DNA of 64,000 nucleotides from an uncultured bacterium (lineage in GTDB: Bacteria; Bipolaricaulota; Bipolaricaulia; RBG-16-55-9; DRJF01). Shown here one piece after another: positions 5,891-63,962 of the stretch; positions within the stretch are counted from its first letter, which is position 1, and the number at the start of each line of letters is the position of its first letter. The stretch lies in NCBI GenBank assembly GCA_913053845.1, contig CAJXGD010000006.1:713-64712 (forward strand), read 5' to 3'. The position numbers and the translations under genes are program-made. The notes under the pieces are model-generated. The model was given only the letters and a program-made list of their open reading frames with translations. It had not been told where the DNA came from and did not search any database.

Positions 5891-5954
5891 CCGGAACCGG
5901 GTAGGGGCGAGTGCTCACTCGCCTCTACCCCTTTCTGGACAGCTAGTCCGATAG

Positions 5955-6923
5955 ATGGCCGGTTATCTGCTGCGGCGGTTGCTGCAAAGCGTGGTGGTGC
6001 TCTTCAGCGTCTCGCTGATCTCCTTTGTGATCTTCCAGTACCTGGGTGATCCCATTCGCACCAACTACAATCCCCAGGAGCTGACCAGGCAGCGTGTGGT
6101 GCAACTGCGCCGGGAGCTGGGCCTGGACCAACCTTTTTATCTGCAATACGCACACTGGCTGGAGCGCGCGCTGCACGGGGACTTCGGCCTGTCCTATCGC
6201 CAGCGCCTGCCGGTGATGCGGCTCATCTTAGCGCGCGCCCCGGCCACGCTGGAGTTGGCGACGCTGGCGCTCTTCAGCGGCACATTATTGGGACTGCTGT
6301 TGGGAATCTGGTCCGCGCTGCACCCTCGTTCTTTGTCGGCCAAGAGCGCGATAGTCACCTCGCTGCTGGGCATCTCCACCCCTACCTTTGTGGTGGGCTT
6401 GCTCTTGATCCTGCTTTTTTCGGTGAGTTGGCACTGGTTGCCCCCCTTCGGTCGCGGCACCACAGTCAGTTTGGGGGCGTGGAGGAGTGGCCTGCTCACC
6501 CTCAGCGGTTGGCAGCACCTGATCATGCCGGTGATCACTCTGGGGCTCTTTCAGGTGGGGGTGATGGCCCGGCTTACCCGCAGCGGGATGCTGGAGGTAC
6601 TGGCCCAAGATTACGTCCGCACCGCCTGGGCCAAGGGGCTGAGCAGCACGCAGGTGGTGGGCAAACATGCCTTGCGCAACGTGCTCATCCCGGTGATCAC
6701 CGTCTTGGGGATGAGCTACGGGGAGTTGATCGCCTTCTCCATTGTGACCGAGTCAATCTTCCAATGGCCTGGCCTGGGGAATCTGCTGCTGCACGCGGTC
6801 TTCTCCAGCGACCAACCCATTGTGGTCGCCTATATCGTGTTGACCTCTTTGCTCATCTTGAGCCTCAATCTTGTGGTTGACCTGCTCTACGTGGCGCTCA
6901 ATCCTCGCATCCGTTATGGCTAA
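5955..6923 (+). CDS. ABC transporter permease (DppB/OppB-like)
   Basis: 322 aa polytopic membrane protein with the binding-protein-dependent transport inner-membrane-component layout; follows the SBP gene. Confidence 0.8.
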   Translation: MAGYLLRRLLQSVVVLFSVSLISFVIFQYLGDPIRTNYNPQELTRQRVVQLRRELGLDQPFYLQYAHWLERALHGDFGLSYRQRLPVMRLILARAPATLELATLALFSGTLLGLLLGIWSALHPRSLSAKSAIVTSLLGISTPTFVVGLLLILLFSVSWHWLPPFGRGTTVSLGAWRSGLLTLSGWQHLIMPVITLGLFQVGVMARLTRSGMLEVLAQDYVRTAWAKGLSSTQVVGKHALRNVLIPVITVLGMSYGELIAFSIVTESIFQWPGLGNLLLHAVFSSDQPIVVAYIVLTSLLILSLNLVVDLLYVALNPRIRYG

Positions 6924-33468: not shown

Positions 33469-33760
33469 GTGGTTGTGAGATTAACCAGAATGACACGGCC
33501 TAACTTCACTATAATACCTTGGCAGGAGCGTGTCAAGCCTGCCAAGCTGTCGTTGGGGAGCCGGGCGATCTACAAGCTGGTCAAGCACCTATTGGGCGAG
33601 CAGCGCTATGAGGGCAACCTCGCACAGCAATCCCTCAAGGGTAGGCCCATGCTTGACGGTTAATCATGACTTGCTATAATGACGCCGAGCGGCTTTCCGT
33701 GGACCCTGCCATGCGGCACGTGGTGGGCGGCAGGGCCAAGGAGCGGAATGGCGGAAAATT
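33469..33760 (+). pseudogene. possible IS5-family transposase N-terminal remnant (frameshifted, truncated)
   Basis: Two frames carry fragments resembling the IS5 transposase N-terminus (TIIPWQERVKP..GNL in one frame; AERLSVDPAMRH in the next), recalled from the IS5 pattern ILPWQ...ARLSLDSALPD; no DDE domain follows. Confidence 0.25.
33653..33680 (+). promoter_or_regulatory. candidate sigma70-like promoter (TTGACG-16-TATAAT) directed toward the DUF211 and VIT-like gene pair
   Basis: -35 at 33653-33658, -10 TATAAT at 33675-33680. Confidence 0.3.
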
Positions 33761-33837
33761 GGCGATAAAGCGCACTAAAACACAGGGAAACTATTAGGTA
33801 GCCACACTCTGAGATATTTAGTCAGGGGGTTAATCCT

Positions 33838-34176
33838 ATGCAATACGGCTTTAAAAAACAAAAAAGTGATCCTGAAACTGGGAACACCTCAATGAATATC
33901 CGTCGCCTTGTACTTGATGTGGACAAAAGCTTTTCTCTCCCCTCGCTTCTGGACATCGCCAGGAGTATAGACACGGTCGCCGGGGTAGAGGCCTTTAATA
34001 TCACGGTTGAGGAGATAGATATGGAGACGGTGGGCACCGTCATAACGGTCGAGGGCAACAACATCGATTATGCCGGTCTGGTAAAGGCCATCGATGCAAC
34101 TGGCGCGGTAGTGCATTCAGTTGATGAACTGGTAATTGGAAGTCACATGGTCGAATTTGTCAGGCGCCATCGGTGA
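33838..34176 (+). CDS. DUF211-family protein (hypothetical)
   Basis: 112 aa; IRRLVLDVDK..AGVEAFNITVEEIDMETVGTVITVEGNNIDYAGLVKAIDATGAVVHSVDELVIG fits my recollection of the DUF211 pattern (RRLVLDVLKPH..VEGV..V.V.EVD..TE...ITVEG..ID...I...IE..G..IHSIDEVV.G). Confidence 0.45.
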   Translation: MQYGFKKQKSDPETGNTSMNIRRLVLDVDKSFSLPSLLDIARSIDTVAGVEAFNITVEEIDMETVGTVITVEGNNIDYAGLVKAIDATGAVVHSVDELVIGSHMVEFVRRHR

Positions 34177-34700
34177 GAAACTACCTCTTATTCCCCCTGT
34201 CAGTCGGGCTCGCGGACGGAATCATTACTGCGCTGATACTTACGGCGGGAGAGATCCTGCATGTCGGGGGCCATATCGGTTTCGGTCTGGCCCTTCGCAT
34301 CGCTGTTGGAGTGGCTCTCCCGAGCGTCTTTACCTTCTTCGTTGCTAACTATGCCAGGCTCCGCCGGGAGTTGGTACATGCCTCGAGGGAGCTCAACTTG
34401 GACTCCCCCATGCACTTGATAGATAGCCACCTGGGCCGAATCATCGTCCGTAAAGCGCTTATAGTGACCTCGGTCGGAGCTGTCTCCGGCTTTGCCGGTG
34501 CCCTCTTACCACTCCTGGTCAGCGTTCTGATACCGAGTCCCGCGTGGCTCACGATCGCTGCAGCTATCCTGGCATTAGGCGTCTTCGGGGCGAGTCTTGC
34601 AATCTCCGTGCGTGGAAATCCTGTATATTGGATGGTTGCTCTAGTGCTTGCAGGGGCACTGGTCACGATTATTGGCAGTGTACTTCACATCGTGAGATAG
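34173..34700 (+). CDS. small polytopic membrane protein, VIT1/CCC1-like (putative Fe/Mn transporter)
   Basis: 175 aa, ~5 TM helices; N-terminal LSVGLADGIITALILTAG resembles the VIT motif FNDGLTANFGLIMG of the MbfA-like protein at 7849; 4-nt overlap with the DUF211 gene. Confidence 0.35.
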   Translation: MRNYLLFPLSVGLADGIITALILTAGEILHVGGHIGFGLALRIAVGVALPSVFTFFVANYARLRRELVHASRELNLDSPMHLIDSHLGRIIVRKALIVTSVGAVSGFAGALLPLLVSVLIPSPAWLTIAAAILALGVFGASLAISVRGNPVYWMVALVLAGALVTIIGSVLHIVR

Positions 34701-34743
34701 TGTCTGCAAGGTGATTGTAGAGAGGTTAAGAGGCGATCCGATC

Positions 34744-34999
34744 ATGCGCATCCGTGTTCAGCTTATAGCGCAACAACTGCCCTCTGAAGAAGTACGCGTT
34801 GCTGCATGGCGCCTGGCCTGCCTGCTCCGATTTGACATTGAGTCTCGACCAGGCCTATATTGCGCGTAGAGGGGGCAAGATCTACAAGCTGATCACGCTG
34901 GGTCATGAGGCAGGCTTGGGGAAGAAGAACTCGATGGGCTTTGGAATGGTGGAGGTGGTTTTAGCCCAGCAAGGAGGGAGAGCGAATGGCAAGCGCTAA
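34744..34999 (+). pseudogene. possible cas6 relic (N-terminal ~40 codons and C-terminal glycine-rich-loop fragment in different frames)
   Basis: Frame 1: MRIRVQLIAQQLPSEEV.. (Cas6-like N-terminus) ending at an in-frame stop; overlapping frame 2 ends ..ITLGHEAGLGKKNSMGFGMVEVV, matching the Cas6 G-rich loop consensus GhGxxxxxGhG near the C-terminus. No CRISPR array in the window. Confidence 0.3.
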
Positions 35000-36395
35000 A
35001 CAGGCCCGGATGGTCAAGGCGGTGGAACGAGCAATGCGCCGGGTGGGCCGCCAGGTGCTCCAGGGAGCGGCCTGGGAGGGCTGCATGAAGATGTGGCGGG
35101 ATTTCAGCGACCAGACCGACATCAGCCGCACGCGCAAACCCGAGGCCTGGGCCGCGGCGCTGGCCTATACCTACGAGCGGATGCGGCTGGGACTGACCAG
35201 TCAGGAGGAGGTGGCCCGCACCTTTAAGGTCTCAGCCATCACCGTAAGCCAGAAGTACCGTCAGATCACCGAGACGCTCAAGCTGCTGTTGCTCGATCCG
35301 CGCTACATCCCCGCGGCGATGCGCAGCCGGATTCGGCGTGAGGAGGGACCCGTACCGGAGGATCTGCCGCTCAGGGAAGCTCCACCCTGGGGCGGATGGG
35401 GCTGGCAACCGCCGATTGATTCTTTCGAGGAGTGGTTGGCAGAGCTAGAGACTGGACCATTGCGTCGAGCGCAGGACTGGGTCTATCAGGGGTGGGACTC
35501 CTGCGATGACCTGGAAGAGGCCGAGCGTTGCTTCCGCGAGGCGCTGCGGCTGGATCCTACTCTGGCCGATGCGCATAACGGCCTGGCCGAGGTGGCGCTG
35601 ACCGGCGATCATCTCGCTGCGGCTGAGGCCCATTTCCGGCGGGCTTATAGCCTGGCTCGCGAGGCGTTGGGGAGCGAATCCCCGCAAGCATGCCACTGGT
35701 GGGGGGAGTTGGAGACACGGCCCTATATGCGGGCACGGGAGGGGCTGGCCCGGGTCTACTGGAGCGAAGAGCGCTATCGGGAAGCGATCGCCGAATATGA
35801 AGCGCTCTTGCACCTGAACCCCAATGATAATCAGGGAGCGCGCTATCTCATCGGTAGCCTGTATCAGCTTGCCGGCGATCTGGAGGGCGCTTTGTGCGCC
35901 TATCAACAGTATGAGCAGGACTACCCTGATGACACGGGCGATCCGCAGCAGACCTTTTGTTGGGGTCTGGCGCTCCATGAAGCGGAGCGCTACGCAGAAG
36001 CGATCAGCCGCTGGCGTCAGGCGATCTTCCAGAATATCTACATTGCGCCGCTGCTGCTGGCAGAACAGCCGCCGCAGGAGGATATTTGGCTGTTCACCGA
36101 TCTGGCTTGGCCGGCTTACGCGGAGGACTATCTCGCAAATTATGGCGAGTTGTGGGAGCGGGCACCACGAGCGCTGGAGCGTTTACGCCGCCTGTGGCAT
36201 GATAAAGAGCTGCAAGCGGAGCTGAAGCGCTGGTTGGCCTTGGGAGAGCGATTGCAGGAATTGTCGGATGCTGTGCGGCAGTCAGACGATGAGAATTCTC
36301 CTCGCAGGCAAGAGTGGAAACGCCTGAGTGCCGAGCAGCGTAAGATCGAAGAACGCGCTGCCAGTAAGGAATTACTGCGGCGGGTAGGGAGATGA
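34986..36395 (+). CDS. TPR-repeat protein with N-terminal HTH-like segment
   Basis: 469 aa; HTH-like TSQEEVARTFKVSAITVSQKYRQI, then several TPR-like helical repeats (..AEAHFRRAYSLA.., ..YREAIAEYEALLHLNPNDNQGARYLIGSLYQLAGDLEGAL..). Confidence 0.55.
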   Translation: MASAKQARMVKAVERAMRRVGRQVLQGAAWEGCMKMWRDFSDQTDISRTRKPEAWAAALAYTYERMRLGLTSQEEVARTFKVSAITVSQKYRQITETLKLLLLDPRYIPAAMRSRIRREEGPVPEDLPLREAPPWGGWGWQPPIDSFEEWLAELETGPLRRAQDWVYQGWDSCDDLEEAERCFREALRLDPTLADAHNGLAEVALTGDHLAAAEAHFRRAYSLAREALGSESPQACHWWGELETRPYMRAREGLARVYWSEERYREAIAEYEALLHLNPNDNQGARYLIGSLYQLAGDLEGALCAYQQYEQDYPDDTGDPQQTFCWGLALHEAERYAEAISRWRQAIFQNIYIAPLLLAEQPPQEDIWLFTDLAWPAYAEDYLANYGELWERAPRALERLRRLWHDKELQAELKRWLALGERLQELSDAVRQSDDENSPRRQEWKRLSAEQRKIEERAASKELLRRVGR

Positions 36396-36405
36396 ACCCG
36401 GTCTA

Positions 36406-36461
36406 GGTCCTGATTTGACATCAGGGTTGAGCTGAAGGACCATATCCTATAAGGTTGCACT
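36406..36461. repeat. direct repeat DR-L flanking the HEPN/MNT cassette
   Basis: ~56 bp; core TCAGGGTTGAGCTGAAGGACCATATCCTAT is 31/32 identical to the copy at 37363-37392; ends 1 nt before the MNT start codon. Confidence 0.6.
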
Positions 36462-36926
36462 ATGGACATCGAAGCCCTCGCAGCCAAATTACACCCCGTC
36501 CTATCTACCCGGCCGGAAGTGCGACTGGCCTATCTATTCGGCTCGGCTGCCCAGGGCCGCACAAAAAATAAGCTCAGCGATCTTGATATCGCCGTGCTGG
36601 TGGACGAGGACTATTACGAAGCTCACAAGGGAGGCTTTGCCTATGAAGCGGATTTGATCAACGATCTAGTCCAGGCACTGCGAATGAACAGGATAGACCT
36701 CGTCCTGCTGCACAAATCTCCACCCCTGCTGGCTCACGAGGTCATCCGCAAGGGCCGGTTGCTCTTCTGTCGCGACGCTCACGAGCGTGTCATCTTTGAG
36801 GTGGAGGTTATGAAGCGCTACTTGGATACCCAGCCGCTACGTCAGATCAAGCGCCAGTATCTCTACGAACGCATCGAGCGCGGCGCATTCAGCGAGGTGA
36901 AGCTACCATTGTCAACCGAGAGGTAA
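36462..36926 (+). CDS. minimal nucleotidyltransferase (MNT/MntA-like antitoxin of a HepT/MntA-type TA pair)
   Basis: 154 aa; GS..x9-13..DxD pol-beta NTase motif (LFGSAAQG..LSDLDIAVLVD). Confidence 0.75.
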   Translation: MDIEALAAKLHPVLSTRPEVRLAYLFGSAAQGRTKNKLSDLDIAVLVDEDYYEAHKGGFAYEADLINDLVQALRMNRIDLVLLHKSPPLLAHEVIRKGRLLFCRDAHERVIFEVEVMKRYLDTQPLRQIKRQYLYERIERGAFSEVKLPLSTER

Positions 36927-36958
36927 TCGAGGCGCACCTGGGGAACATAGCGCTTCAT

Positions 36959-37336
36959 GTGGCCCATCTGAAGTCCTTGCGTACTCGTTCTCTGGTGGAA
37001 TTCTCGCGGGATTGGCTAGCCTTTTACGCTGCCGAACGAGGCATCCAAATTGCCGTGCAGAATCTGTTGGACATTGGTGCGCATATCCTGGCCGATTTTG
37101 GGGATTCACAATGGGACGAATACAAGCAAATCCCGGTGGAGCTGGCCCGCTATGGCGTGGTTCCTCAGGAGTACGTAGAACGAGCTCAGCGGATGGCCGG
37201 AATGCGTAACCTGTTGGTCCATCAGTACACCGAAATTGACGTAGATCAAGTCTATGAGGTGCTCAAGAACCATCTGGATGACTTCGACCGCTTTGCTGCT
37301 TATGTTAAGGCCTACTTGGATCGGTCACCACCTTGA
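36959..37336 (+). CDS. HEPN-domain protein (HepT/DUF86-like toxin)
   Basis: 125 aa from a GTG start (the reading frame is open from 36902, so the true start may overlap the MNT stop); Rx4-6H motif RNLLVHQY near the C-terminus. Confidence 0.75.
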   Translation: MAHLKSLRTRSLVEFSRDWLAFYAAERGIQIAVQNLLDIGAHILADFGDSQWDEYKQIPVELARYGVVPQEYVERAQRMAGMRNLLVHQYTEIDVDQVYEVLKNHLDDFDRFAAYVKAYLDRSPP

Positions 37337-37346
37337 GCCTACCCTG

Positions 37347-37404
37347 GGTTCCGATTTCGATCTCAGGGTTGAGCTGAAGGATCATATCCTATGAGAGTTG
37401 CAGT
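37347..37404. repeat. direct repeat DR-R flanking the HEPN/MNT cassette
   Basis: Second copy (~85% identical over ~56 bp) beginning 11 nt after the HEPN stop and abutting the stop codon of the convergent FG-GAP gene. Confidence 0.6.
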
Positions 37405-39060
37405 TCAAAGATCGTTGGTAAACAGGGTGATCTCATCCGTGCCGAAGCCGATGACCGCCAAGTCCGGGAAACCCTCGCGGTCGAAATCTCCCAGCGCAAT
37501 GCCCGCCGGAGTGCCTCCGGCATGAAGCAGCTTGCGCCCACCGGCCAGAAATTCCCCGCTCGCATCGCCTAGCAGCACCGCCAGCGTGTCGTTGCCCCCG
37601 TTGGCCGTCACCAGGTCAAGCTGCCCATCACCGTTCAGATCGGCACTGGCCACCGCACGGACCTGTGAGCCCACCGGGATGATCACCCGCTGGTTAAAAT
37701 GGCCGCCGGGAGCACCGTGCAAGATGGTCAGATCGCCATCGGCAGAGTCGGCCACCGCCAAGTCCAGCCACCCATCGTGGTTGAAGTCGCCGGCAGCCAA
37801 CGCGGCCGGCCCACGGCCCACCGCCGTCTCCAGCGGCGCGGCAAAGTCGCCCCGACCGTCACCGATCAAGATGGCTACCGTATCGCCGAAGAAGTCGGCC
37901 ACGGCCAAATCCAGTCGCCCATCACCGTTGAAGTCGCCTGAGAGCAGCGCACTGGGCCAGCGGCCGGCCGGGGCATAGCGGGCCGGGGCGAAGCCACCTT
38001 GCCCATCTCCCAGCAGCAACCCGATGCGATTCTGCGGGGCATCGGCCACGGCCAGATCGAGATGGCCATCGTCGTTGAAGTCCCCCCAGCTCAGCGCCGA
38101 GACCGCTCCGGCCACCGGGAAATAGCGCAGTGGCTGAAAGCGCCCGGCCCCGCTGCCTAGCGCCAGGGAAATTTCTCCGGTCTCGAAGCTGCCGCTGGCC
38201 AGGTCCGGCAAACCGTCCTCATTGAAATCGGCCACTACCAGCGAAGAGGGCGCGTGGCGCACCGGGATATTGCCGATCTGGCTGAAGCGGCCATCGGGTT
38301 GCTGGATCAGCACCGAGATGTCGTTGCTGGCGATATTGGCCACTGCCAGGTCGAGTCGCCCGTCGCCGTCCAGATCGGCGCTGACCACTGCCACCGGCGA
38401 GCGACCCACCGGCTGGACCAGTTTCTCGCTGAAGCCGAGCGCCTGAATCTCCACCACGGCGCGATCGCTCAGGTCGGCCGCGCCGGTGACCGTCAGTGTG
38501 GCCCGGTAGCGCCCCCCACGGGCGTAACGGTGGCTCACTCGCATACCGTCGGCTCCACTGCCATCGCCAAACCCCCAATGATAGCCGATGATAACCCCGG
38601 CGTTGGGGCCGTCGGCCGGCCCCAGGGAACCGGAGCCGTCGAAGGTGACCGTCAGGGGCGCCCAGCCCCCGGTGGGACTGGCGATCAGCAGCGCCCGGGG
38701 CACCAGGTCTCCCACGGTGATGGTCAGCGCGGCCGCCCCGCTGCGCCCCCGATCGTCGCTGACCAGCAGGCGCACCCGATAGCGGCCCTTGCGGTTATAA
38801 CTGTGGATCACCTGGGAGCCTTGCGCTTGGCTACCATCGCCCAAACTCCATTGATAGCGCACCAGGGTTGCTCCGGCCGTGCCGCTCACCGAGGCTGAGC
38901 CGTCCAGATGCACCACCAGCGGCGGGGGCCCGCTGATCGGCGAGGCCTTGATCACCGCCAGCGGTGCCCCTGGCGGGCCCATCAGGCCACAGCCGCTCAA
39001 TACCAGCACCAGGCTGGCGCAGATGAGCATCAGTTTGAGCCAATTGGCAGCTTGTTTCAC
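37405..39060 (-). CDS. secreted lipoprotein with two PKD domains and FG-GAP/VCBS (integrin-alpha-like) repeats
   Basis: Lipobox LVLSGC; two PKD signatures (PLVVHLDGSASV..YQWSLGDGS; PLTVTFDGSGS..YHWGFGDGS); seven or more repeats of DFNxDGxLDLAVA. Confidence 0.7.
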   Translation of the reverse strand: MKQAANWLKLMLICASLVLVLSGCGLMGPPGAPLAVIKASPISGPPPLVVHLDGSASVSGTAGATLVRYQWSLGDGSQAQGSQVIHSYNRKGRYRVRLLVSDDRGRSGAAALTITVGDLVPRALLIASPTGGWAPLTVTFDGSGSLGPADGPNAGVIIGYHWGFGDGSGADGMRVSHRYARGGRYRATLTVTGAADLSDRAVVEIQALGFSEKLVQPVGRSPVAVVSADLDGDGRLDLAVANIASNDISVLIQQPDGRFSQIGNIPVRHAPSSLVVADFNEDGLPDLASGSFETGEISLALGSGAGRFQPLRYFPVAGAVSALSWGDFNDDGHLDLAVADAPQNRIGLLLGDGQGGFAPARYAPAGRWPSALLSGDFNGDGRLDLAVADFFGDTVAILIGDGRGDFAAPLETAVGRGPAALAAGDFNHDGWLDLAVADSADGDLTILHGAPGGHFNQRVIIPVGSQVRAVASADLNGDGQLDLVTANGGNDTLAVLLGDASGEFLAGGRKLLHAGGTPAGIALGDFDREGFPDLAVIGFGTDEITLFTNDL

Positions 39061-39128: not shown

Positions 39129-41339
39129 TCAGCGCCTGACTGCCAGCTTCTGCACCCCGCTGCTGACCGTCTGCCCCTGGGCGGTGTCAACCGTGACCAG
39201 ATAGAGATAGACCCCCGTGGCCACCGGGGCGCCCAGCCGATCCTGCTCTGACCAGACCAGCGCTCGCCTGATCGTGGCGCTGAAGCTGAAGACCACCCGC
39301 CCGGCCAGGTCGAATACCTGCAAGTGCCAGCCCCTCCCAGCCGCGCCGGGGGCCATAAGCGCCGACCAGAGATATCCTGAGGCCCGGCGCTGCGGTCTGA
39401 GCGCGGCCAGCTCGGCCCGCAGGGTTCGGCCCTGGCCGACCACTATCAGGCTGTCCCCCTCGACCGGCCGGCCATTGATCGTGCCCTTTAAGCGGTAGCG
39501 TCCTGGCTTGATCTCCGAGGAGAGCACCAGCGCGTAACGCAGCCAGATCGTCCGGCCCGGCGCGGCGGCCGGCCAACTCCAGGCCGAGCTTCCGGGGTCA
39601 AACTCTCCCCCGCCATTGTCCAGCGGCACGATGCGAAAACCCGCAGGCGGCTTCTCCTGCAGTCGCAGGCCGCCGAAGCGCCCCAGTGGCATTTGCAAAT
39701 TGATCGAGACGACCAGTCGCTCGCCAGGTCGGACAGCGGAGCCCGTATGCTGAACGTGACGTGCGGCGCTGGGCCAACCTAGGATCAAGTCTAGCTCGCC
39801 GGCCCCATAGGTGACGTCGGGACCGGGCGGGCCCAGATCGGTGGCGTCCCCGCGCAGAGCGGCCTTCAGTTGGGCGGTGCTCCAGCCGGGATGCTGCGAG
39901 AGCAGCAGTGCGGCCGCTCCGGCCACGTGCGGCGCGGCCGCCGAGGTCCCCAAGAAACCGCCGAATCTATTAGAGAAGAAAAGATTGTCTACCCCATCGG
40001 GTCCGACTAAATCCGGCTTGATGCGCCCATCGAAGGTGGGCCCCAGGGCGCTGAAGCTCTCCTGAGGGCCGCTGGACCAGCGCTCGCGATTGACCGCTCC
40101 CACGGCCAGCGTGCAGCTGCAGTCGGCCGGAGCGACGAGGCTGCCGTGGGGTATGGGCTTCTCAAAATATGCTCCCGACTCGATCTGAAAGAGCCGCAGC
40201 CACATCGGCCGCGTGGCCCAGTGGGCGCGGACCCGCACGAAATAGACACCGGGATGGTCAGCCACATATTGCAGCTCCTCGCGTGGTGGCTGGGTCCCCG
40301 TCTGGCGATTCTGAGAGCTGGCCAGCACCTTGCCACGGGCATCGGTGAGATAGAGATCGTAATCCTGATCGGTCGTCGGCCAGTCGTTCCAGACCAGCAC
40401 CAGGTCAATCAGGCCGCCAAGCGGCACTTTCAGCGCTAGCGACTGCTTCCCCAGGGCGAACTCGGCCCAACCGTCGTGGTTGCTGTCGCGGAAGCGGCCT
40501 ATCCAGTGCGCCTGTGCTTGATTGCCCGCCGCGTTGACCCAAAGGATCCCCGCGGCACGAGCTCGACGCGCTATCTCATTGATCAAACCCGTCCCGTCGT
40601 CGAAATCGGTATCGAACCAACCGAGCGAGCAATTGATCACCCGAACACCTAGCCGAATCGCATCATCCACGGCGTTCTCTAAGTCAACCTCATCGCCGAT
40701 CTTCATCAGATATAGCTGAGCACGCGGGGCCATCTCATGGACGATCTCGGCCACGGCGCTGCCATGCTCGCCGCCGGTCAGCAGTCCTTTGCCGGTATAG
40801 TCTTTTTTGAAGACGATCGCGCCGGCCGCCAGCACCCGGTGCTTCACCGCCCAGTAGAGCCCGGAGAAGCCGGCATCTATGATGGCTACCTTGACCCCTT
40901 GACCTTGGAAACCCTGGCTCTGGAAGAGCAGGCCACCGGTGGGCAGCAGCCCTTGGCTGAGCTGCAACTGACCCAGCGGCGCCCAGCGGTAGGGCCGACG
41001 GATATATCTGATGCCGGGGACACGGGTGGCGATCTCATTCAAGCGATCCAGCGGCAGGCGGGCGCGCAGCAGGTCGGATGAGCGCGCCTCGATCTGGGCG
41101 CCCAACTCTCGCAAGGCCGCTTGATCTATCGCGCCGCTCGCGCCTCCCAGGGGTTCGATGATCGCCGTGACAGAAGCACCCGGCCGGCTTGTGGCAGCCA
41201 GCCGGGCCAGCGAGCTCTCCAATTTGCCGCTCGGCGGAGGAGGGCCGGCTAAAGCGATGAAGGAGAGCGCAGCAAAGAGCAGCAGTAGGGGCGAAGCATT
41301 CGCAAGCCAAGAACGGCGTATCTTCTTGAATGCTTGCAC
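39129..41339 (-). CDS. subtilisin-like serine peptidase (S8) with T9SS-type C-terminal sorting-domain-like tail
   Basis: 736 aa; catalytic D (VAIIDAGF), H (HGSAVAEIV), S (GTSAAAPHVAGAAALL); C-terminal ~80 aa LQVFDLAGRVV..GVYLYLVTV..GQTVSSGVQKLAVRR shared with the three downstream paralogs; GTG start. Confidence 0.8.
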   Translation of the reverse strand: MQAFKKIRRSWLANASPLLLLFAALSFIALAGPPPPSGKLESSLARLAATSRPGASVTAIIEPLGGASGAIDQAALRELGAQIEARSSDLLRARLPLDRLNEIATRVPGIRYIRRPYRWAPLGQLQLSQGLLPTGGLLFQSQGFQGQGVKVAIIDAGFSGLYWAVKHRVLAAGAIVFKKDYTGKGLLTGGEHGSAVAEIVHEMAPRAQLYLMKIGDEVDLENAVDDAIRLGVRVINCSLGWFDTDFDDGTGLINEIARRARAAGILWVNAAGNQAQAHWIGRFRDSNHDGWAEFALGKQSLALKVPLGGLIDLVLVWNDWPTTDQDYDLYLTDARGKVLASSQNRQTGTQPPREELQYVADHPGVYFVRVRAHWATRPMWLRLFQIESGAYFEKPIPHGSLVAPADCSCTLAVGAVNRERWSSGPQESFSALGPTFDGRIKPDLVGPDGVDNLFFSNRFGGFLGTSAAAPHVAGAAALLLSQHPGWSTAQLKAALRGDATDLGPPGPDVTYGAGELDLILGWPSAARHVQHTGSAVRPGERLVVSINLQMPLGRFGGLRLQEKPPAGFRIVPLDNGGGEFDPGSSAWSWPAAAPGRTIWLRYALVLSSEIKPGRYRLKGTINGRPVEGDSLIVVGQGRTLRAELAALRPQRRASGYLWSALMAPGAAGRGWHLQVFDLAGRVVFSFSATIRRALVWSEQDRLGAPVATGVYLYLVTVDTAQGQTVSSGVQKLAVRR

Positions 41340-41356
41340 GAATGCTTCGCCCCTAC
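41285..41356. repeat. perfect 19-bp inverted repeat (AGTAGGGGCGAAGCATTCG / CGAATGCTTCGCCCCTACT) spanning the S8 gene start
   Basis: Arms at 41285-41303 (inside the signal-peptide codons) and 41338-41356 (start codon, RBS region and 3' end of the upstream gene), with a ~34-nt loop; same arm sequence as the element at 10306-10349. Confidence 0.5.
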
Positions 41357-41358
41357 TC

Positions 41359-43113
41359 TTATCTGAGGACGACCAGCTTTTTGACCCGACTGCTGAAGCT
41401 CTGTCCGTCCGCGCCCCGGACCGTCACGATATAGAGATAAACCCCGTTGGCCAGCGGCCGACCGGAGCGATCCAGCGGCCGGAAACGCAACCGGTTGCCG
41501 CTCCCTTGTAGGTCTGCGAGGGGACGGCCGTTCAGGCTGAAGAGCTGTAGCCTGACGTCGGCGATCCCCGCTCCTCGGACCTGCAATTCCGCCCGGCCAC
41601 CTGACAGCGAGCGCAGGCCGATGGAGCTTATCGCTAGAGGTGCCGCTGCCGCTGTGGGCTCTCTCATCATGCTCTGGCTGACTCCCAGGAAGCGGAGCAG
41701 GTCGCCCCAGAGGCCACCTACTGCCAGACTGGGCGGGCCGGGGGGCAGAAGCGAATTGTCCCAGCGGTTACGGTCCAGACCGGCGCTGAATAGCTTGCAA
41801 CTACCGGCCACTTTGACCCAGTAGCCCTTAAAATCATTGAGCGGCTCGCTGGGATCAATCGGCGCGTACTTGCTGCCATCGTACCACCAGGGCCCCGATT
41901 GCAGTTGACAGCCGCGAAAGATCGAGCCAATACGATTCCAGCTCTTGGAGGAGGAGATCAGATTCCAACCCTGATGCAACTCCAGATCCTGACGGACATT
42001 GGTGCCGGTCGCCTGCAGGGTGCAGGCGTTATCCACCTTGAGCCAATAACCCTTGGCCGGCTCCAGCTTGTTGGCCTGGATATAGCGGCTGCCGGTCCAC
42101 TCCCAAGGGCCGCTGGCGAACTGACAGGTGCCCTTCAGATCAGCCGGTGCAATGGTGCCCACCGGTGAGGAGATCATGTTCCAGCCGGCGTCGAGCCGCA
42201 AGATCAAGCCGGAGATCGGCACTGGAGGAGGCGGCGGCGCACCGGAGGTGGGCGGGCCGGACTCGCTGATGATGCTAAAACTGTCGGTGAGTGGGCGGTC
42301 ACTCAGGAAATTCGAGCCACAGTTGATCGGGATATCCCGTTGGCAAGGGCCGTTCTCTTTCAAAGGCGTATCGTCGGCCACCGCCAGCCGCAGCGAGACG
42401 TTAATCCGGCCGGCTGGAGCGTTGGAGCCGATGTCCACAGTGAAGTAGAGCAGCAGCGGCGTCGTCTCGCCACCCAGGCCGGCGGCGTAGACCGGCTGTA
42501 GGTTTTGGCTGGTCATGATCCAATCTTGCTGGCGCCCGAAGCGGGCGACGGCCTGCCCATTGCTGTTGGTAAATTGAACCGGCACCCGGGCTATCAGCTC
42601 GTTGGCCTGGAAGAGGATGCCATCTCCACCTCCACTAAAAGGAGGGAGAGGGAAGCCATCGGTGTAGACACGCAAAGTCTTGAGTGCCTTGGCGCCCGGT
42701 CCGCTAAAGGTGATCACCCCGCCCTTGATGCCGGTGGCCAGGCCATCGGCTCCGCCGGTCTTGGCCGGCTTGGGCGTGCAGCCTAAGATCGCCAAGCCGC
42801 CGGAGATGGCCATCGGCGTGCCCGGCAGAGAAGGGACGATCTTAGCGGTAGTATTATTCAGCACTCCGCCGTCACAGATGCCCACCACAATGGCCAGCGC
42901 CTCATCGGTGCCCGGGTTGATCTGTCGCGCTTGATCCCGTGTCAGCAGGTTGGTCAGGTGAATCACCTGGATGTCGCTCTCCGCTAGGCCGCTGCCGGCC
43001 AGATAGCCTGGTAAAGGCGCCGCTGAGGCCCTCCCGCCGCCGGTCCCAAATCCCACCAGCAGCAGGACGGACGACAGCAGCGCCACCAGAACAGTCCGCA
43101 TGCTATACTTCAT
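41359..43113 (-). CDS. secreted repeat protein, paralog 1 (shared N-terminal domain, 2 Trp/Cys-rich modules, T9SS-type CTD-like tail)
   Basis: 584 aa; signal peptide; N-terminal domain ~65% similar to paralog 2; two modules of the form GWNMISSPV..C..GPWEW.G..Y..A..LEPAKGYWLKV..C; CTD ..GVYLYIVTVRGADGQSFSSRVKKLVVLR. Confidence 0.6.
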   Translation of the reverse strand: MKYSMRTVLVALLSSVLLLVGFGTGGGRASAAPLPGYLAGSGLAESDIQVIHLTNLLTRDQARQINPGTDEALAIVVGICDGGVLNNTTAKIVPSLPGTPMAISGGLAILGCTPKPAKTGGADGLATGIKGGVITFSGPGAKALKTLRVYTDGFPLPPFSGGGDGILFQANELIARVPVQFTNSNGQAVARFGRQQDWIMTSQNLQPVYAAGLGGETTPLLLYFTVDIGSNAPAGRINVSLRLAVADDTPLKENGPCQRDIPINCGSNFLSDRPLTDSFSIISESGPPTSGAPPPPPVPISGLILRLDAGWNMISSPVGTIAPADLKGTCQFASGPWEWTGSRYIQANKLEPAKGYWLKVDNACTLQATGTNVRQDLELHQGWNLISSSKSWNRIGSIFRGCQLQSGPWWYDGSKYAPIDPSEPLNDFKGYWVKVAGSCKLFSAGLDRNRWDNSLLPPGPPSLAVGGLWGDLLRFLGVSQSMMREPTAAAAPLAISSIGLRSLSGGRAELQVRGAGIADVRLQLFSLNGRPLADLQGSGNRLRFRPLDRSGRPLANGVYLYIVTVRGADGQSFSSRVKKLVVLR

Positions 43114-43199
43114 GTTGACCTCCCCTTGGATTCATGTTGAGGGATAAATGCCTCGCAGCTTCTTTATACCTCAACCGGATAAGGGGAGGCACGACGGTC

Positions 43200-45425
43200 C
43201 TAACGTAATAGTAGGAGTTTCCGCACCTCGCTGCTGGTCGCCTGTCCGTCCGCGCCCTTGACCGTCACGATATAGAGATAGACCCCGTTGGCCAAGGGTC
43301 GCCCCTGCCGGCCGAGGGTGGCCAGATGCAACCGGTTGCCTCTCCCGCGCGCCTGGGCGACCAACGTGCCGGCCAGATCATAGAGGCGCAGCTCACTGTG
43401 CCCGATGCCTCTGCCAAGCACCTGCAGCTCAAGGCCTGACCCTACCTGACTGAGCCGAACGCCTTCCAGACGCAAGGGCACAGCCTGCTGTGCTATAGAG
43501 CTGAATTCAGAGGCCGGTGCTGCGCCCTTGCCGGACAGTCCTTGGCTGTTCACGTTGCAGCCCTGGCTCACCTTGGCCCAGTAGCCCTTAAAGCCGTTTA
43601 GCGGCGTGCCAGGGGCGATCTGCTTATACTGCTTGCCATTCCACCACCAGGGACCGGAGAGCAGCGTGCAGCCGCCGGTATTGAGCTGGTTCCAGCTCCC
43701 GGAAGATGAGATCAGATTCCAGCCGGGGCTCAGGGCCAGGCTCTGGGGAAAGCTCCCTGACGAAGGTGGAGTTTGCAGGGTGCAAGGCACTCCAACCTTG
43801 ACCCAATAGCCCTTAGCCGACTCCAGGGTAGATGCTTGCTCGTAACGGGTTCCGGTCCACCACCAGGGGCCGCTGCTGAAGAGACAGTCGCCCTGCACTG
43901 CCGAGAGGGGCACCGAGCGGATCGGAGAGGAGATCATGTTCCAGCCGACATGTAATTTGAGCGTGGGGCTCAAGCCGCCGGGAGGGGCGGGGGGTTGCGA
44001 TTGTAGGGGCGAAGCATTTTCAACTGGCAGCCGGGGTATGGGGTTGAGCTCAGGGACCCATGCTGCGCCCTTATCTTGCCCCTGCGCGCTCTGGCTGCTG
44101 ACGCTGCAACCGGCCCCGACCTTGACCCAATAGCCCTTGAAATCCTCCATGGAGGTGCCGGAAGCCACCTGCTGGTACCGGGTGCCGTCGTACCACCAGG
44201 GACCGGAGAGCAGCGTGCAGCCACCGGTATTAAGCTGGTTCCAACTCCCAGATGACGAGATCAAATTCCAGCCGCCGACCAAGCTTAGACTCTGCGGGGC
44301 GTTGCTGCCTGAGGCCTGCATGGTGCAAGCTCCGGCCACTTGGACCCAATAGCCCTTGGCCGGCTCGATGGTGCCCGCCTGCTGGTAGCTGGAGCCGCTC
44401 CACCACCAGGGGCCACCGGTGACGCTGCAGTTGCCTTGCAGCGAGCTGAGCGGCACCGAGCCCACCGGCGAGGAGATCATGTTCCAGCCGGCGTGCAGAC
44501 TCAATGAGAGCCCTCCGCCTGGCGGCGCCGGCGGCGGGGTTCCGCCACCTGGAGCGGCCCCGCCGACGATCTCGAAGCTGTTCATCTCCGGGCCGCTCTT
44601 CATGAAGTTCGAGCCACAGTTGATTCCTAACAACAGGAACCGAGCACAGATGCCGCCGGCTCCTTGCGCGGTATCATCGCCGGCGCCAACTCCCAAGGCG
44701 ACGTTGACACGGCCGCTGGTGGCATCTTGCCCGATGTCCACGGTGAAGTAAAGTAACTCCGGTCGCGTCTGACCGTTTACCCCAAATGCAACGACGGGTG
44801 CGCCGTTGCGGGCGGAGAGGATCTGCTCTTGAGTGCGACCGAACTGGGCGATCGCCTCGCCGGTGCCCGTATTGAACCGGGCGGTCACCTGTTGGATCAG
44901 CTCCGCCGGCTCAAAGAGCCGCCCATTGCCGCCGCCCTTGTAGGGACCTACCGGTGGCAGGACCGGGGCATCCACATACATACGCACGGTGCGAATGAAC
45001 CTGGCTCCCGGTCCGCTGAAGACGAGAATCGCGCTGTTGACTCCGGTGGCTAGCCCGTCCGAGCCACCTGTCAAGGCGCCTCCTGAGGGTATGCAGGGAA
45101 TGGCTGCCAGGCCGCCGGCGATGGTCGCGGTGGCTCCGGCGACCGGCACCAGCAGGGTGGCGCTGGTGTTGGCCAGTACGCCCCCGTCGCAGATGCCGAC
45201 CATGATGGCCAGCACCCCGCTGGTGCCAGGTGTGATCTGGGTACCGCGATTTCGGGTGAGCAGTCCGGAGATATGAATCGTCTGAATGTCGGACTCGGCG
45301 TTGCCGCTGCCGTTGGAGAGATTCGGAATGGGTGAGGCCCCGGCAGTTGCAGCCGGACCGAATGAGGTAATGATTAGTGCCAATACTACGAAGGCTAAGC
45401 TGAACGCCTTGAGTTTGAGATTCAT
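43200..45425 (-). CDS. secreted repeat protein, paralog 2 (4 Trp/Cys-rich modules, T9SS-type CTD-like tail)
   Basis: 741 aa; signal peptide; the same N-terminal domain as paralog 1; four modules (two near-identical pairs separated by Pro/Gly linkers); CTD ..GVYLYIVTVKGADGQATSSEVRKLLLLR. Confidence 0.6.
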   Translation of the reverse strand: MNLKLKAFSLAFVVLALIITSFGPAATAGASPIPNLSNGSGNAESDIQTIHISGLLTRNRGTQITPGTSGVLAIMVGICDGGVLANTSATLLVPVAGATATIAGGLAAIPCIPSGGALTGGSDGLATGVNSAILVFSGPGARFIRTVRMYVDAPVLPPVGPYKGGGNGRLFEPAELIQQVTARFNTGTGEAIAQFGRTQEQILSARNGAPVVAFGVNGQTRPELLYFTVDIGQDATSGRVNVALGVGAGDDTAQGAGGICARFLLLGINCGSNFMKSGPEMNSFEIVGGAAPGGGTPPPAPPGGGLSLSLHAGWNMISSPVGSVPLSSLQGNCSVTGGPWWWSGSSYQQAGTIEPAKGYWVQVAGACTMQASGSNAPQSLSLVGGWNLISSSGSWNQLNTGGCTLLSGPWWYDGTRYQQVASGTSMEDFKGYWVKVGAGCSVSSQSAQGQDKGAAWVPELNPIPRLPVENASPLQSQPPAPPGGLSPTLKLHVGWNMISSPIRSVPLSAVQGDCLFSSGPWWWTGTRYEQASTLESAKGYWVKVGVPCTLQTPPSSGSFPQSLALSPGWNLISSSGSWNQLNTGGCTLLSGPWWWNGKQYKQIAPGTPLNGFKGYWAKVSQGCNVNSQGLSGKGAAPASEFSSIAQQAVPLRLEGVRLSQVGSGLELQVLGRGIGHSELRLYDLAGTLVAQARGRGNRLHLATLGRQGRPLANGVYLYIVTVKGADGQATSSEVRKLLLLR

Positions 45426-45448
45426 CTATGTTCCCCCTTGATTATACG

Positions 45449-45565
45449 CCGGGGATTGAAATCCCCGGCTACGGTGAGGCATAAAACCCCTACGGGGTTC
45501 CAGGTCGTGAACCCTCGTGAGAGGGTTTCCCTGACGTCACGTAGCCGGGAAATTCATTTCCCGGT
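45449..45565. repeat. structured intergenic element, copy A (four hairpins plus a closing long-range helix)
   Basis: Hairpins CCGGGGA-TTGAAA-TCCCCGG, CCCC-TA-GGGG, AACCCTC-GTGA-GAGGGTT, CCGGGAAA-TTCA-TTTCCCGG; CCGGCTACG pairs with the distal CGTAGCCGG; ~80% identical to copy B at 61361-61474 with compensatory changes. Confidence 0.45.
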
Positions 45566-45568
45566 CTC

Positions 45569-47197
45569 CTATCGCAGCACGACCAGCTTCTTGACCTCAC
45601 TGGTGATCATTTGTCCGTCCGCGCTCTTGACAGTCACGATGTAGAGATAGACACCATTGGCCAGCGGTCGTCCCTCGCGACTCAAAGCCATCAGGCGCAG
45701 CCGGTTCCCTGTCCCTTGGGCCTGCACGATCAACCGGCCGGCCAGAGTGTAGAGACGCAGCTCGGTGCTCTCGATGGCGCTGCCAGCCACTTGCAAGCGG
45801 ATGCTGGAACCCTGAGCGCTCAAGCGCACGCTTTGCAATTGCAAGGGTGCGGCGCCGGCTGAGGGAGGCCTGGGGAACCCTCCAAATGCAGGGGGCATGC
45901 CGTTACTCCTCTCCTGAACCACCGCCGACTGGCTGCTCACGGTACAACCGCCGCCCACTTTCGCCCAATAACCCTTGAAGCCCTCCATCGGCGTGGCAGG
46001 AGGCACCTGCTGATACCGCGTGCCATCGTACCACCAGGGGCCGGAGAGCAAGGTGCAGCCTCCAGTGTTCATCTGGTTCCAGCTCCCGGATGAAGATATC
46101 AGGTTCCAGCCGCTCACCAAGCTCAGGCTCTGCGGAGATGAGCTGCCGCCCGCCTGCATGGTGCAAGGGCTACCCACTTTGACCCAGTAGCCTTTGGCCG
46201 GCTCCAATACAGAAGCCAACTGATAGGCGGTACCATTCCACTCCCAGGGGCCGCCGCTGAAGGAGCAGTTGCCCTGCAGTGAAGAGATAGGTGAGGAGCT
46301 GACCGGGGTGGAGATCATGTTCCAACCGGCGTGCAAGCTCAGTGAGAGTCCACCTGCGCCCGGCGGAGGTGGCGGAGCCCCGCCACCCGATCCACCACCA
46401 GGCGCGGTTCCACCGATGATGTGCAGCGTGATATTACTCCCTTGCGGATTGGCCGAGGCGCCGAAGCTGTCGCTCACCCGCGCCCCGCCTACCGGTCCGC
46501 CTCCGGCCAGCGCTCCGGGGATGTCGCCGGCCACCGCTTCCAGTTGTAGGGCAAAGTCCGAGCCGCTCACCGGGTTGGGTCCAATCTTGACCACGGCCAA
46601 CAGCGAGACGGCACAGAAGTTAGCCCCTGCCACCCCCACCGTCCTGCACAATGTTCCTCCTCCCACCGAAGTGAGCGTAAAGACTGGACTGGCCCCACCG
46701 TTGGAGAAGAGCGCCTTGCCGGCGTCCAAATCGGCACCGGTGTAGGTTCTGCCCACCGGCAGGTCAATGCCGGGGTCGAAGCGTCCGTTGAAGTTGCTGT
46801 CCTGATAGATGGTCATCTCTTGGATATCGGCATCGCGGGCGTTGGTAATGGTCGTGGTGATCAGCGCGCCCATCACGTTGAGCGGCCACATACTCCCTGG
46901 GGTACAGTTGCCTGATGCCACGACGCCGGTGTGGGCCACGTAGTCATTGGCCAGCACCCAGGCGCCGGCCACCGCCGTGCTATTGGGACTGACGGTGAGC
47001 GAAGAGGGTATGCCGGTGGTGGTGAACTGATCGGTGGCCAGCACTGCGCCGGTGGGACAGCCGCTGGCGGGGACGAGCCCCGGCAAGCTGAGGTAGGCCG
47101 AGCCGTTCACCCCCAACAGGAAGGTCGCCAGCAGTCCAACCAGCAAAGCAGCCATCGGCCATCTCAGTCGGGAACGGTCTATCATCTTGAGCCTCAT
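45569..47197 (-). CDS. secreted repeat protein, paralog 3 (distinct N-terminal domain, 2 Trp/Cys-rich modules, T9SS-type CTD-like tail)
   Basis: Start set at MRLKMIDRSRLRWPMAALLVGLL (signal peptide; the ORF track extends to 47290); different N-terminal domain but the same module pair and CTD ..GVYLYIVTVKSADGQMITSEVKKLVVLR. Confidence 0.6.
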   Translation of the reverse strand: MRLKMIDRSRLRWPMAALLVGLLATFLLGVNGSAYLSLPGLVPASGCPTGAVLATDQFTTTGIPSSLTVSPNSTAVAGAWVLANDYVAHTGVVASGNCTPGSMWPLNVMGALITTTITNARDADIQEMTIYQDSNFNGRFDPGIDLPVGRTYTGADLDAGKALFSNGGASPVFTLTSVGGGTLCRTVGVAGANFCAVSLLAVVKIGPNPVSGSDFALQLEAVAGDIPGALAGGGPVGGARVSDSFGASANPQGSNITLHIIGGTAPGGGSGGGAPPPPPGAGGLSLSLHAGWNMISTPVSSSPISSLQGNCSFSGGPWEWNGTAYQLASVLEPAKGYWVKVGSPCTMQAGGSSSPQSLSLVSGWNLISSSGSWNQMNTGGCTLLSGPWWYDGTRYQQVPPATPMEGFKGYWAKVGGGCTVSSQSAVVQERSNGMPPAFGGFPRPPSAGAAPLQLQSVRLSAQGSSIRLQVAGSAIESTELRLYTLAGRLIVQAQGTGNRLRLMALSREGRPLANGVYLYIVTVKSADGQMITSEVKKLVVLR

Positions 47198-47319
47198 ATC
47201 TGCCTCCTTTGCGTAGAGTTGATGATCACGAGATTCGGCATGGAGCATTCTAGCAGAGAGATGGGGAGAGGACCAAATAGCTAAAATCAAGAGCAGAGGC
47301 TACCTATGCGGTGCCCCGC

Positions 47320-61147: not shown

Positions 61148-61232
61148 AGCAGGATGCCTCCTTTGCTCTTCTGCGTGATGCTATACCGATGTACATTGAT
61201 CATATCGCATGTTTTTTGTAGGGGCAACCCCC

Positions 61233-61303
61233 CGTGGTTGCCCTGAATCCTGGGCGAGCGCCCTGGGCAGGCACAGGGGCCTGCCCCTACAAATTGGGTT
61301 CAC
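61233..61303. repeat. composite palindromic element bounded by GTAGGGGC .. GCCCCTAC with internal hairpins
   Basis: GGGCAACC-CCCCGT-GGTTGCCC and GGCAGG..CCTGCC hairpins; GCCCTGAATCCTGGGC occurs twice within 100 bp; related copies at 63880-63962 show compensatory changes (CAGCC/GGCTG vs CAACC/GGTTG). Confidence 0.4.
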
Positions 61304-61360
61304 CATGTCCCATTCGTTGTGGGGGCGAATCTTGTATTCGCCCTGAATCCTGGGCTAACA

Positions 61361-61474
61361 CCGGGGATTAAAATCCCCGGCTACGGTAAGGCAGAAAACC
61401 CCTACGGGGTTCCGGCCGTTAACCCTCAAAGAGGGTTTCCCAGCTTTTCGGTAGCCGGGAGATTTATCTCCCGG
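61361..61474. repeat. structured intergenic element, copy B (same four-hairpin architecture as 45449-45565)
   Basis: CCGGGGA-TTAAAA-TCCCCGG, CCCC-TA-GGGG, AACCCTC-AAA-GAGGGTT, CCGGGAGAT-TTA-TCTCCCGG; the fourth stem differs from copy A by compensatory pairs (GAAA/TTTC vs GAGAT/ATCTC). Confidence 0.45.
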
Positions 61475-63879: not shown

Positions 63880-63962
63880 CAGGGCGACCACGTAGGGTCG
63901 CCCCTACATTGTTTACGGTGGTTGTGTTTTTCTGTAGGGGCAGCCCTATGTGGCTGCCCTGC
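63880..63962. repeat. palindromic elements of the GTAGGGGC/GCCCCTAC family upstream of the SLH gene
   Basis: GGGCGACC-ACGTAG-GGTCGCCC followed by CCCTACA, then TGTAGGGGCAGCC-CTATGT-GGCTGCCCTG; co-varies with the 61233-61262 copy. Confidence 0.35.

Follow-up and report, generated by a model that had tools for sequence, protein, structure and literature searches.

The 64,000-nt stretch of a Candidatus Fraserbacteria genome analysed here (contig CAJXGD010000006.1; 'the window' denotes this whole stretch) carries a toxin–antitoxin (TA) gene pair, mntA–hepT, between two imperfect direct repeats. We found that each repeat is very probably what is left of a type I cas3 gene at its 3′ end: 19 terminal codons, the stop codon and a downstream spacer of 9–10 nt. 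The locus is a decayed CRISPR-Cas system, of which fragments of cas1 and cas6, a TPR gene, the TA pair and the two cas3 ends remain. Our explanation combines the cas3 identity of the repeats and the decay of the locus with an origin of the repeats by 3′-end displacement, and we hold it as a whole with moderate confidence. Duplicative insertion of the pair, as the specific history behind the repeats, is put forward more tentatively. An earlier note on this DNA had read the repeats as the trace of the pair's arrival. They are probably such a footprint, but as diverged cas3 3′ ends they would be neither the termini of a discrete mobile cassette nor sites at which it recombines.

A 30-nt core occurs at exactly two sites in the window, 36421–36450 and 37363–37392 (one mismatch, 29/30), and none of 100 shuffles gave a match. 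Short-word BLAST found no third copy in the 64 kb, which is the extent that the copy count covers. The similarity reaches upstream to 36394 and 37335, running into the TPR stop codon at the first and the hepT stop codon at the second, so the repeat unit is ~68–70 nt long (36394–36461 and 37335–37404). The repeats had been described as ~56 bp long; the two copies are there, but the unit is longer. Likewise, the right copy does not begin 11 nt after the HEPN stop, as had been stated, but inside the stop codon of hepT (37335). Both copies begin at the same nucleotide, TGA[A/G]CC, with the TPR or hepT stop overlapping a cas3 Glu codon, and the start junctions, right after or within the TGA, read AGATGAACC and CCTTGAGCC. 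At the other end, the left copy stops exactly at the mntA ATG and the right copy exactly at the stop of a convergent FG-GAP/PKD gene (37405). The whole structure amounts to exactly 1.07 copies of one 941-nt unit. Over the cas3-coding part, the left and right copies are identical at 47 of 59 positions. The pair and its borders are listed here; L numbers denote comparison loci, L010 being a Candidatus Bipolaricaulia contig and L016 the locus of the Cas3 protein P0127.

36394–36452, plus strand: probable left cas3 3′-end relic, last 19 codons and TAA, reading EPGLGPD[F]DIRVELKDHIL and stop, with a 1-nt deletion in codon 8; 41/59 to the L010 cas3 end and 39/59 to that of L016
36453–36461, plus strand: spacer from the cas3 stop to the next gene, GGTTGCACT, read from the sequence
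36462–36926, plus strand: mntA, MntA-type minimal nucleotidyltransferase antitoxin, 154 amino acids (aa); Pfam Polbeta 7.9e-19, Protein Data Bank (PDB) 7AE2_B 4.7e-08 and 5YEP_A 1.7e-06
36923–37336, plus strand: hepT, HepT-type HEPN RNase toxin; Pfam HepT-like 1.2e-27, PDB 7AE9_A 1.8e-11, alignment with 15 homologs
37335–37394, plus strand: probable right cas3 3′-end relic, last 19 codons and TGA, reading EPTLGSDFDLRVELKDHIL and stop, frame intact, first codon overlapping the hepT stop; found by ungapped scan and tblastn
37395–37404, plus strand: spacer behind the stop of the right relic, GAGTTGCAGT, directly next to the stop of the convergent FG-GAP/PKD gene

In a six-frame comparison of all the loci fetched, the repeat peptide matched best at the extreme C-terminus of the L010 Cas3, a protein with Cas3_HD, DEAD, Helicase_C and Cas3-like_C_2 domains. 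The peptide EPTLGSDFDLRVELKDHIL aligns, with the same stop, to the end of this protein (ESGIGPHFDIRVDLEANIL) and also to the Cas3 end of P0127/L016 (EPNIGPNFDGRVELKANII). The matches obtained with the last 230 aa of the L010 Cas3 as query were Cas3 proteins. The C-termini of the closest subfamily follow the pattern YE..[IV]GP.F..., always with 18 residues after YE (P0127 ends in YEPNIGPNFDGRVELKANII); the length from YE to the stop is equal in 5/5 of them, and the left relic has the same length to its stop. When the last 30 aa of P0127 were compared with the window by tblastn, the right copy was the top match (E=1.4e-4). In an ungapped scan of both strands with the terminal 60 nt of the L016 and L010 cas3 genes, position 37335 ranked first with 39/60 for each, against a background mean of 14–15 (standard deviation 3.4; z about 7 for the right copy), and the left copy (36393) ranked second for L010 (35/60) and tied for second for L016 (30/60). 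The relics match each real cas3 end at 39–41 of 59–60 positions, which makes them as close to these ends as the L010 and L016 ends are to each other (35/60). Furthermore, the intact L016 junction reads cas3...ATC ATT TAA GGAGCAAGTGA ATG-cas4 and the left copy reads ...ATC CTA TAA GGTTGCACT ATG-mntA. Because the two layouts match, the start of mntA would lie at the position of the cas4 start in an intact operon. Of the cas3 body nothing else was found in the window by tblastn with full-length Cas3; 19 codons remain at each site and there is no intact cas3 frame.

The two copies differ by 12 substitutions, of which 7 are at third codon positions. Of the differing codons, six are synonymous or change one stop to another, against three that replace the amino acid (P=0.015 and 0.044 by simulation). 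The replacements in the right copy leave the family consensus, namely Pro to Ser, where 5/5 relatives have Pro, and Gly to Thr at a more variable position, where 3/5 have Gly. The left copy keeps the consensus residues, but has the 1-nt deletion, which we date late. Since the divergence is biased towards synonymous changes and the replacements fall in the right copy, the data fit a duplication that took place while cas3 was still alive.

Other identities for the repeats were considered and set aside. No Rfam match was found over the repeats, even at E<=10. As attC sites of an integron cassette they would lack paired core sites, and neither copy folds better than shuffles on either strand (z −1.6 to +0.95); no integron integrase or further cassette is present among the large open reading frames (ORFs) from 19 to 57 kb, and there are only two repeat copies. 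A frameshifted C-terminal tail of HepT is not their source, as 15/15 homologs end where the HepT of the window ends. The idea of relic CRISPR repeats was prompted by solo CRISPR repeats beside mntA in L005 and L006, which are real repeats as judged by the L010 array. The repeats of the window are not significantly similar to the lineage repeat (CTTTTAATCGAACCAATATGGTATTGAAAC in L010) and are not among its best local matches; their 941-nt spacing is not array-like, and the match to cas3 is by far the better explanation of the sequence. With regard to dispersed elements (of the repetitive extragenic palindromic, REP, or miniature inverted-repeat transposable element type), the count is two copies in 64 kb, and the genome collection searched apparently lacks this species. 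Recurrence of the core elsewhere, which the earlier note had proposed to look for, was not seen: the 30-nt pattern had 0 matches in the genome contig collection and in viral contigs. The species appears to be absent from the genome collection, because a genome scan with the TPR protein was likewise empty. The whole cassette (36397–37404) had no blastn match in a plasmid collection.

The pair itself is unexceptional: its family is known, and so is the kind of neighbourhood in which it lies. Its description as a canonical HEPN/MNT pair is borne out. MntA also matches Pfam NTP_transf_2 (2.8e-07) and carries the motif LFGSAAQG...SDLDIAV, so that both the MNT fold and the GS...DxD motif are present. 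HepT carries MRNLLVHQY (Rx4HxY), and in the alignment of the window HepT with 15 homologs, R100, N101 and Y107 are nearly invariant in the 16 sequences. The nearest HepT elsewhere is only 73% identical, and the closest relatives span 57–73% identity; there is thus no sign of a recent spread of the pair. HEPN/MNT systems of type VII with solved structures are known from Aphanizomenon flos-aquae (PDB 7AE2, 7AE6, 7AE9) and Shewanella oneidensis (SO_3166/SO_3165; PDB 5YEP, 6M6U). The pair shares with both an antitoxin-first two-gene operon, the GS...DxD motif of MNT, RNLLVHQY in HEPN and significant sequence matches. Unlike them, it is distant in sequence (36–48 bits), has a GTG-to-GTA change at the HepT start and belongs to a clade embedded in cas operons. 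From its motifs, the pair would be expected to work as a standard type VII module, in which HepT is an Rx4HxY RNase that MntA neutralizes by AMPylation.

The conserved N-terminus of HepT begins at 36923/36926. A DNA alignment of the mntA/hepT junction (36918–36930; GTGATCGA in L005–L007 versus GTAATCGA in the window) revealed that hepT has GTA in the window in place of its ancestral GTG start, the codon that overlaps the TGA stop of mntA in L005–L007. Because of this mutation, HepT translation is possibly reduced. The first canonical start is the GTG at 36959, which gives a 125-aa product and would drop ~12 conserved N-terminal residues. The antitoxin-first order and the overlap are retained. 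In the NCBI annotation of the same locus, HepT starts with ATT at 36887.

The remains of the CRISPR-Cas locus and its flank are as follows.

33568–33624, plus strand: cas1 C-terminal fragment, IYKLVKHLLGEQRYEGNLA; tblastn with two independent Cas1 proteins (L007, E=0.015; L011, E=0.028)
34799–34999, plus strand: cas6 C-terminal fragment, a pseudogene remnant; Pfam Cas_Cas6_C 8.1e-07, 30.3 bits against a cutoff of 23, also flagged on L003
34986–36395, plus strand: TPR protein, 469 aa; Pfam TPR families, TGA stop overlapping the first codon of the left relic
37405–39060, minus strand: convergent FG-GAP/PKD gene, flank only, outside the system; Pfam FG-GAP_3 1e-61, PKD_4 3e-31

The window holds no CRISPR array, no intact cas gene and no cas remnant other than those of cas1 and cas6 and the cas3 ends; downstream of hepT there is no further group of cas debris. 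The large ORFs between 19 and 57 kb encode housekeeping, transport or surface proteins, none of them an integrase or transposase. Homologs of the TPR gene (~63–64% identity) lie inside CRISPR-Cas loci (L010 8001–9398, L011 8001–9422). In L010 the homolog stands between type III RAMP genes and cas5/cas3 with an array, and in L011–L013 between cas1–cas2 and I-D genes. The TPR gene may be an unrecognized CRISPR-linked accessory gene. Two further observations concern the region of the cas1 fragment. A short ORF behind it (both within window 33545–33800) reads DAERLSVDPAMRHVVGGRA; we take it to resemble the N-terminus of an insertion sequence transposase, and Pfam gave no match. The window also has a 114-nt stretch (33760–33873) that is absent from L002 and L003, which are otherwise 99.9–100% identical.

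All four relatives of the pair for which the context is available (L005–L008) stand beside cas genes. The orders are mntA–hepT–cas4–cas1 in L007, cas6–cas8-like–mntA–hepT–cas4–...–cas1 fragment in L005, and mntA–hepT followed by a cas4 pseudogene, read as such from the sequence, in L006. In L008, the single locus returned by a metagenome scan with MntA, the order is cas3–cas4–mntA; the pair thus comes after cas4 there and before cas4 in L005–L007. L015 was dropped from the comparison, being an unrelated AT-rich contig that had been mis-clustered through a 54-aa fragment. In L005, the cas4 3′ end is duplicated over ~105 nt up to and including the stop (5818–5920 and 6655–6757, ~88% identity), and the duplication flanks a two-gene insert consisting of an 81-aa gene and an HNH endonuclease gene. 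The HNH stop falls within a TCTTGAG where the second copy starts, similar to CCTTGAG at the hepT/right-relic junction. In the window and in L005 alike, the final inserted gene has its stop in a CTTGAG where the duplicated segment starts. As regards the solo CRISPR repeats, they are found at 4484–4513 and 7014–7043 in L005 and at 1380–1409 and 2863–2878 in L006, and belong to the family CTTTTAATCGAACCA..GG.ATTGAAAC, as in the L010 array. They sit exactly at the truncation points of the cas8-like gene and cas1. In both loci, the 3′ end of a solo repeat supplies a −35-like hexamer upstream of mntA.

The locus was found identical on four contigs, and two further relatives differ (L009, ~95% identical on both flanks; L014, ~90%). 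L009 lacks window positions 36397–37389, a segment with the left copy, the two genes and the right copy except for its end. It has instead 86 nt without significant similarity to the repeat (P=0.44 and 0.04), after which the homology starts again with the final 15 nt of the right copy, TATGAGAGTTGC. Since the pair is present in the window and absent from its ~95%-identical relative, it is polymorphic. The empty site that the earlier note had proposed to look for is there in so far as the pair is missing. A clean one-repeat site is not: L009 has no single hybrid repeat, and its 86-nt filler was not accepted as one. At 4898–5315 L009 has a second indel in the same decayed locus, where in comparison with window 33546–34783 the DUF211 gene, the gene for a 175-aa membrane protein and part of the cas6 fragment are missing; here the indel comes with a tandem duplication of flanking sequence instead. 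The L009 data carry the caveat that the end of the contig (7505–7575) repeats TPR/FG-GAP intergenic sequence after an inverted 16-mer, which looks like an assembly fold-back artefact. L014 could not serve as an outgroup for the junction, as its flank has no significant similarity and a different neighbouring gene. Beyond the FG-GAP stop, L014 carries another gene than the window does, which marks this junction as a hot spot of rearrangement.

The two copies seem to have fared differently. The left relic contains the following candidate signals.

36409–36425, plus strand: perfect 6-bp inverted repeat CCTGAT-TTGAC-ATCAGG, a candidate operator, found as a centroid hairpin and in the sequence, just upstream of the −35-like hexamer
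36427–36455, plus strand: promoter-like TTGAGC/17 nt/TAAGGT with 6 nt to the ATG, a possible leaderless start; 7/12 consensus positions

In addition, the cas3 stop and spacer read TAAGG, with a Shine-Dalgarno-like AAGG 7 nt before the mntA ATG. The same promoter geometry is called in relatives (L006 TTGAAA/17/TAAAGT/6/ATG; L007 TTGAAT/18/TAAAAT/6/ATG) and can be seen by eye in L005 (TTGAGC/17/TAAAGT/6/ATG), where the scan did not call it. In S. oneidensis, MntA binds palindromic sequences of its promoter (PMC4621449), and by analogy MntA of the window may bind the palindrome at 36409–36425. The left relic would now serve as the 5′ region of the operon, with the cas3 stop and AAGG 7 nt ahead of the ATG, as at an intact cas3–cas4 junction, and with the −35/−10-like pair and the 6-bp palindrome placed inside former codons. 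In the right copy the palindrome is degraded (TCCGAT..ATCTCAGG) and the −10-like hexamer is TGAGAG. As both are spoiled, we take the right relic, which has no evident function, to be functionless. The suggestion that the repeat is a duplicated operator or 5′ region is half correct, since the mntA operon has its start signals and the palindrome in the left copy, but the right copy is degraded. At the junction of the right relic and the FG-GAP gene there is a promoter-like TTGAAC/16/TATGAT on the minus strand (37381–37408), directed antisense into the 3′ end of hepT; with one such site found against 0.7 expected by chance, it is probably noise.

In the history that we tentatively propose, the pair would have recombined in directly behind a still-functional cas3, with the recombination anchored in cas3. 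This would have left a cas3 3′ end on both sides of the pair and pushed the resident end downstream, as in 3′-end displacement by homology-facilitated illegitimate recombination, which has been proposed for type VI secretion system (T6SS) and Rhs loci (PMC5361080). The left copy would have stayed the working cas3 end for a time while the right copy drifted. Later deletions would then have taken the cas3 body, the downstream cas genes and the array, and the addictive TA pair would have survived. As in the effector–immunity modules of Rhs, contact-dependent inhibition and T6SS loci (PMC5361080), the incoming module would be anchored in a conserved upstream gene and carry a 3′ end of its own, and genes end up between two diverged 3′ termini. 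Unlike in those loci, the gene is cas3 and not a polymorphic toxin, 19 codons are duplicated, the upstream body is lost and the event is read from its footprint. The structure also resembles islands inserted in gene 3′ ends between attL and attR, in that the imperfect direct repeats are a gene end through the stop with a few more bases. It differs from them in having no integrase, an insert of only 885 nt with two genes, no intact upstream target gene and no clean empty site.

Several points weigh against this account. The cas3 body upstream of the left copy is gone, and the later deletion that removed it must have ended exactly at the boundary of the duplication, a coincidence for which we have no explanation; microhomology at the TAT-GAR (Tyr-Glu) site as the cause of the deletion is a guess. 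The synonymous bias comes from 12 differences only. L005–L007 have no cas3 copy or repeat downstream of hepT, where cas4 follows directly. Further copies of the repeat are possible elsewhere in the genome, outside the 64-kb window. As to the pair and its signals, the module may no longer be fully active, given the loss of the ancestral hepT start; the consensus scan of the window did not call the TTGAGC/17/TAAGGT site, which matches 7/12 positions; and the operon may instead be transcribed by read-through from the TPR gene.

Because both relics start at the same nucleotide, two other origins stay alive. One is a local tandem duplication, in which the 941-nt unit of cas3 relic, mntA and hepT was doubled after cas3 had shrunk to its last 70 nt, and the second mntA–hepT was then deleted. 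It would account for the 1.07 copies and for the identical start after TGA, it agrees with the lack of a recombinase nearby, and the relatives show no second repeat copy. We nevertheless regard it as unlikely: its breakpoint must coincide with the older TPR/cas3 junction, the second deletion must run precisely from the position of the ATG to the FG-GAP stop, and relics of a shrunken cas3 would be expected to drift as non-coding DNA, yet the divergence is biased to synonymous changes (P=0.015) with the replacements on one copy. The other is an excisable cassette, that is, a circle of cas3 relic, mntA and hepT formed by homologous or site-specific recombination between the repeats and re-entering at a resident cas3 3′ end or relic. 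A permuted circle would give identical left boundaries despite different upstream neighbours, and the presence or absence of the pair between ~95%-identical relatives and its variable position, after cas4 (L008) or before it (L005–L007), also point that way. Set against this are the TA-less allele of L009, which has no single hybrid repeat but 86 nt of filler and 15 nt of the right copy, the core that was not found in the genome and viral collections, the cassette that was unmatched in plasmids, the nearest HepT at 73% identity, and the lack of an integrase or transposase in 19–57 kb and of attC-like structure. We consider such a cassette quite improbable.

Two independent cas3 genes from two type I modules, with separate deletions fusing TGA to the Tyr-Glu codons, would explain the coding-type divergence and the TGA[A/G] shared by both junctions, and L010 does have type III and type I systems side by side. 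On this account, however, two unrelated deletions must end at the same nucleotide, there is no evident selection to keep the right relic, and no second cas debris lies downstream of hepT; its probability is in our view very low. Lower still is that of a functional duplicated operator, in which both copies bind MntA or a HepT–MntA complex and the downstream copy acts as a decoy or roadblock. The palindrome of the left copy, beside the −35-like hexamer, and the binding known for S. oneidensis MntA (PMC4621449) speak for it, but the right copy has kept neither the palindrome nor the −10-like hexamer intact, cas3 ancestry already explains the repeat and the relatives have no downstream copy. We consider 3′-end displacement behind cas3 the simplest and most likely of these origins.

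Elsewhere in the window there is a 56-nt direct repeat pair (45446–45501 and 61358–61413, 93% identical) with two small hairpins, and GC-rich palindromic elements of the type TGTAGGGGCA...TGCCCCTACA occur at 61215–61293 and 63933–63959. These are REP-like intergenic repeats, unrelated to the cas3 relics. On the minus strand, 39129–47290 holds four large paralogous genes (736, 584, 741 and 573 aa) with shared segments D1–D4 and D6; the first encodes an S8 peptidase, and the 584- and 573-aa genes have no Pfam match.

According to the immunity–dormancy coupling hypothesis, toxin and TA modules are embedded in CRISPR-Cas and other immunity loci (PMC3632139; review PMC12737573). Like these, the HEPN toxin module lies in or next to cas genes in L005–L008. 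Unlike in those loci, the cas genes around the pair of the window have decayed and the TA pair has outlived them; it also has a cognate MNT antitoxin, whereas modules in immunity loci mostly lack recognizable antitoxins (PMC3632139). What had looked like a mobile cassette would accordingly become a dated footprint: behind cas3, a TA pair would have been integrated into a type I cas operon and have persisted after the whole CRISPR-Cas system was lost. Its survival agrees with a picture in which TA modules are the addictive passengers of defence loci. For annotation, it follows that long direct repeats around a gene pair can be the displaced 3′ ends of a lost neighbour and not att sites.

The parallel at the cas4 end of L005 hints that insertion with 3′-end duplication may be a common entry for accessory genes into cas operons. 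A bolder version, in which two-gene modules enter cas operons by a recurrent 3′-end-targeting route that duplicates the last 70–105 nt of the upstream cas gene through its stop, seems to us doubtful. If this specific mechanism were true, accessory and addiction modules would have a dedicated way to colonize CRISPR-Cas loci, and the 941-nt unit could be a true cassette.

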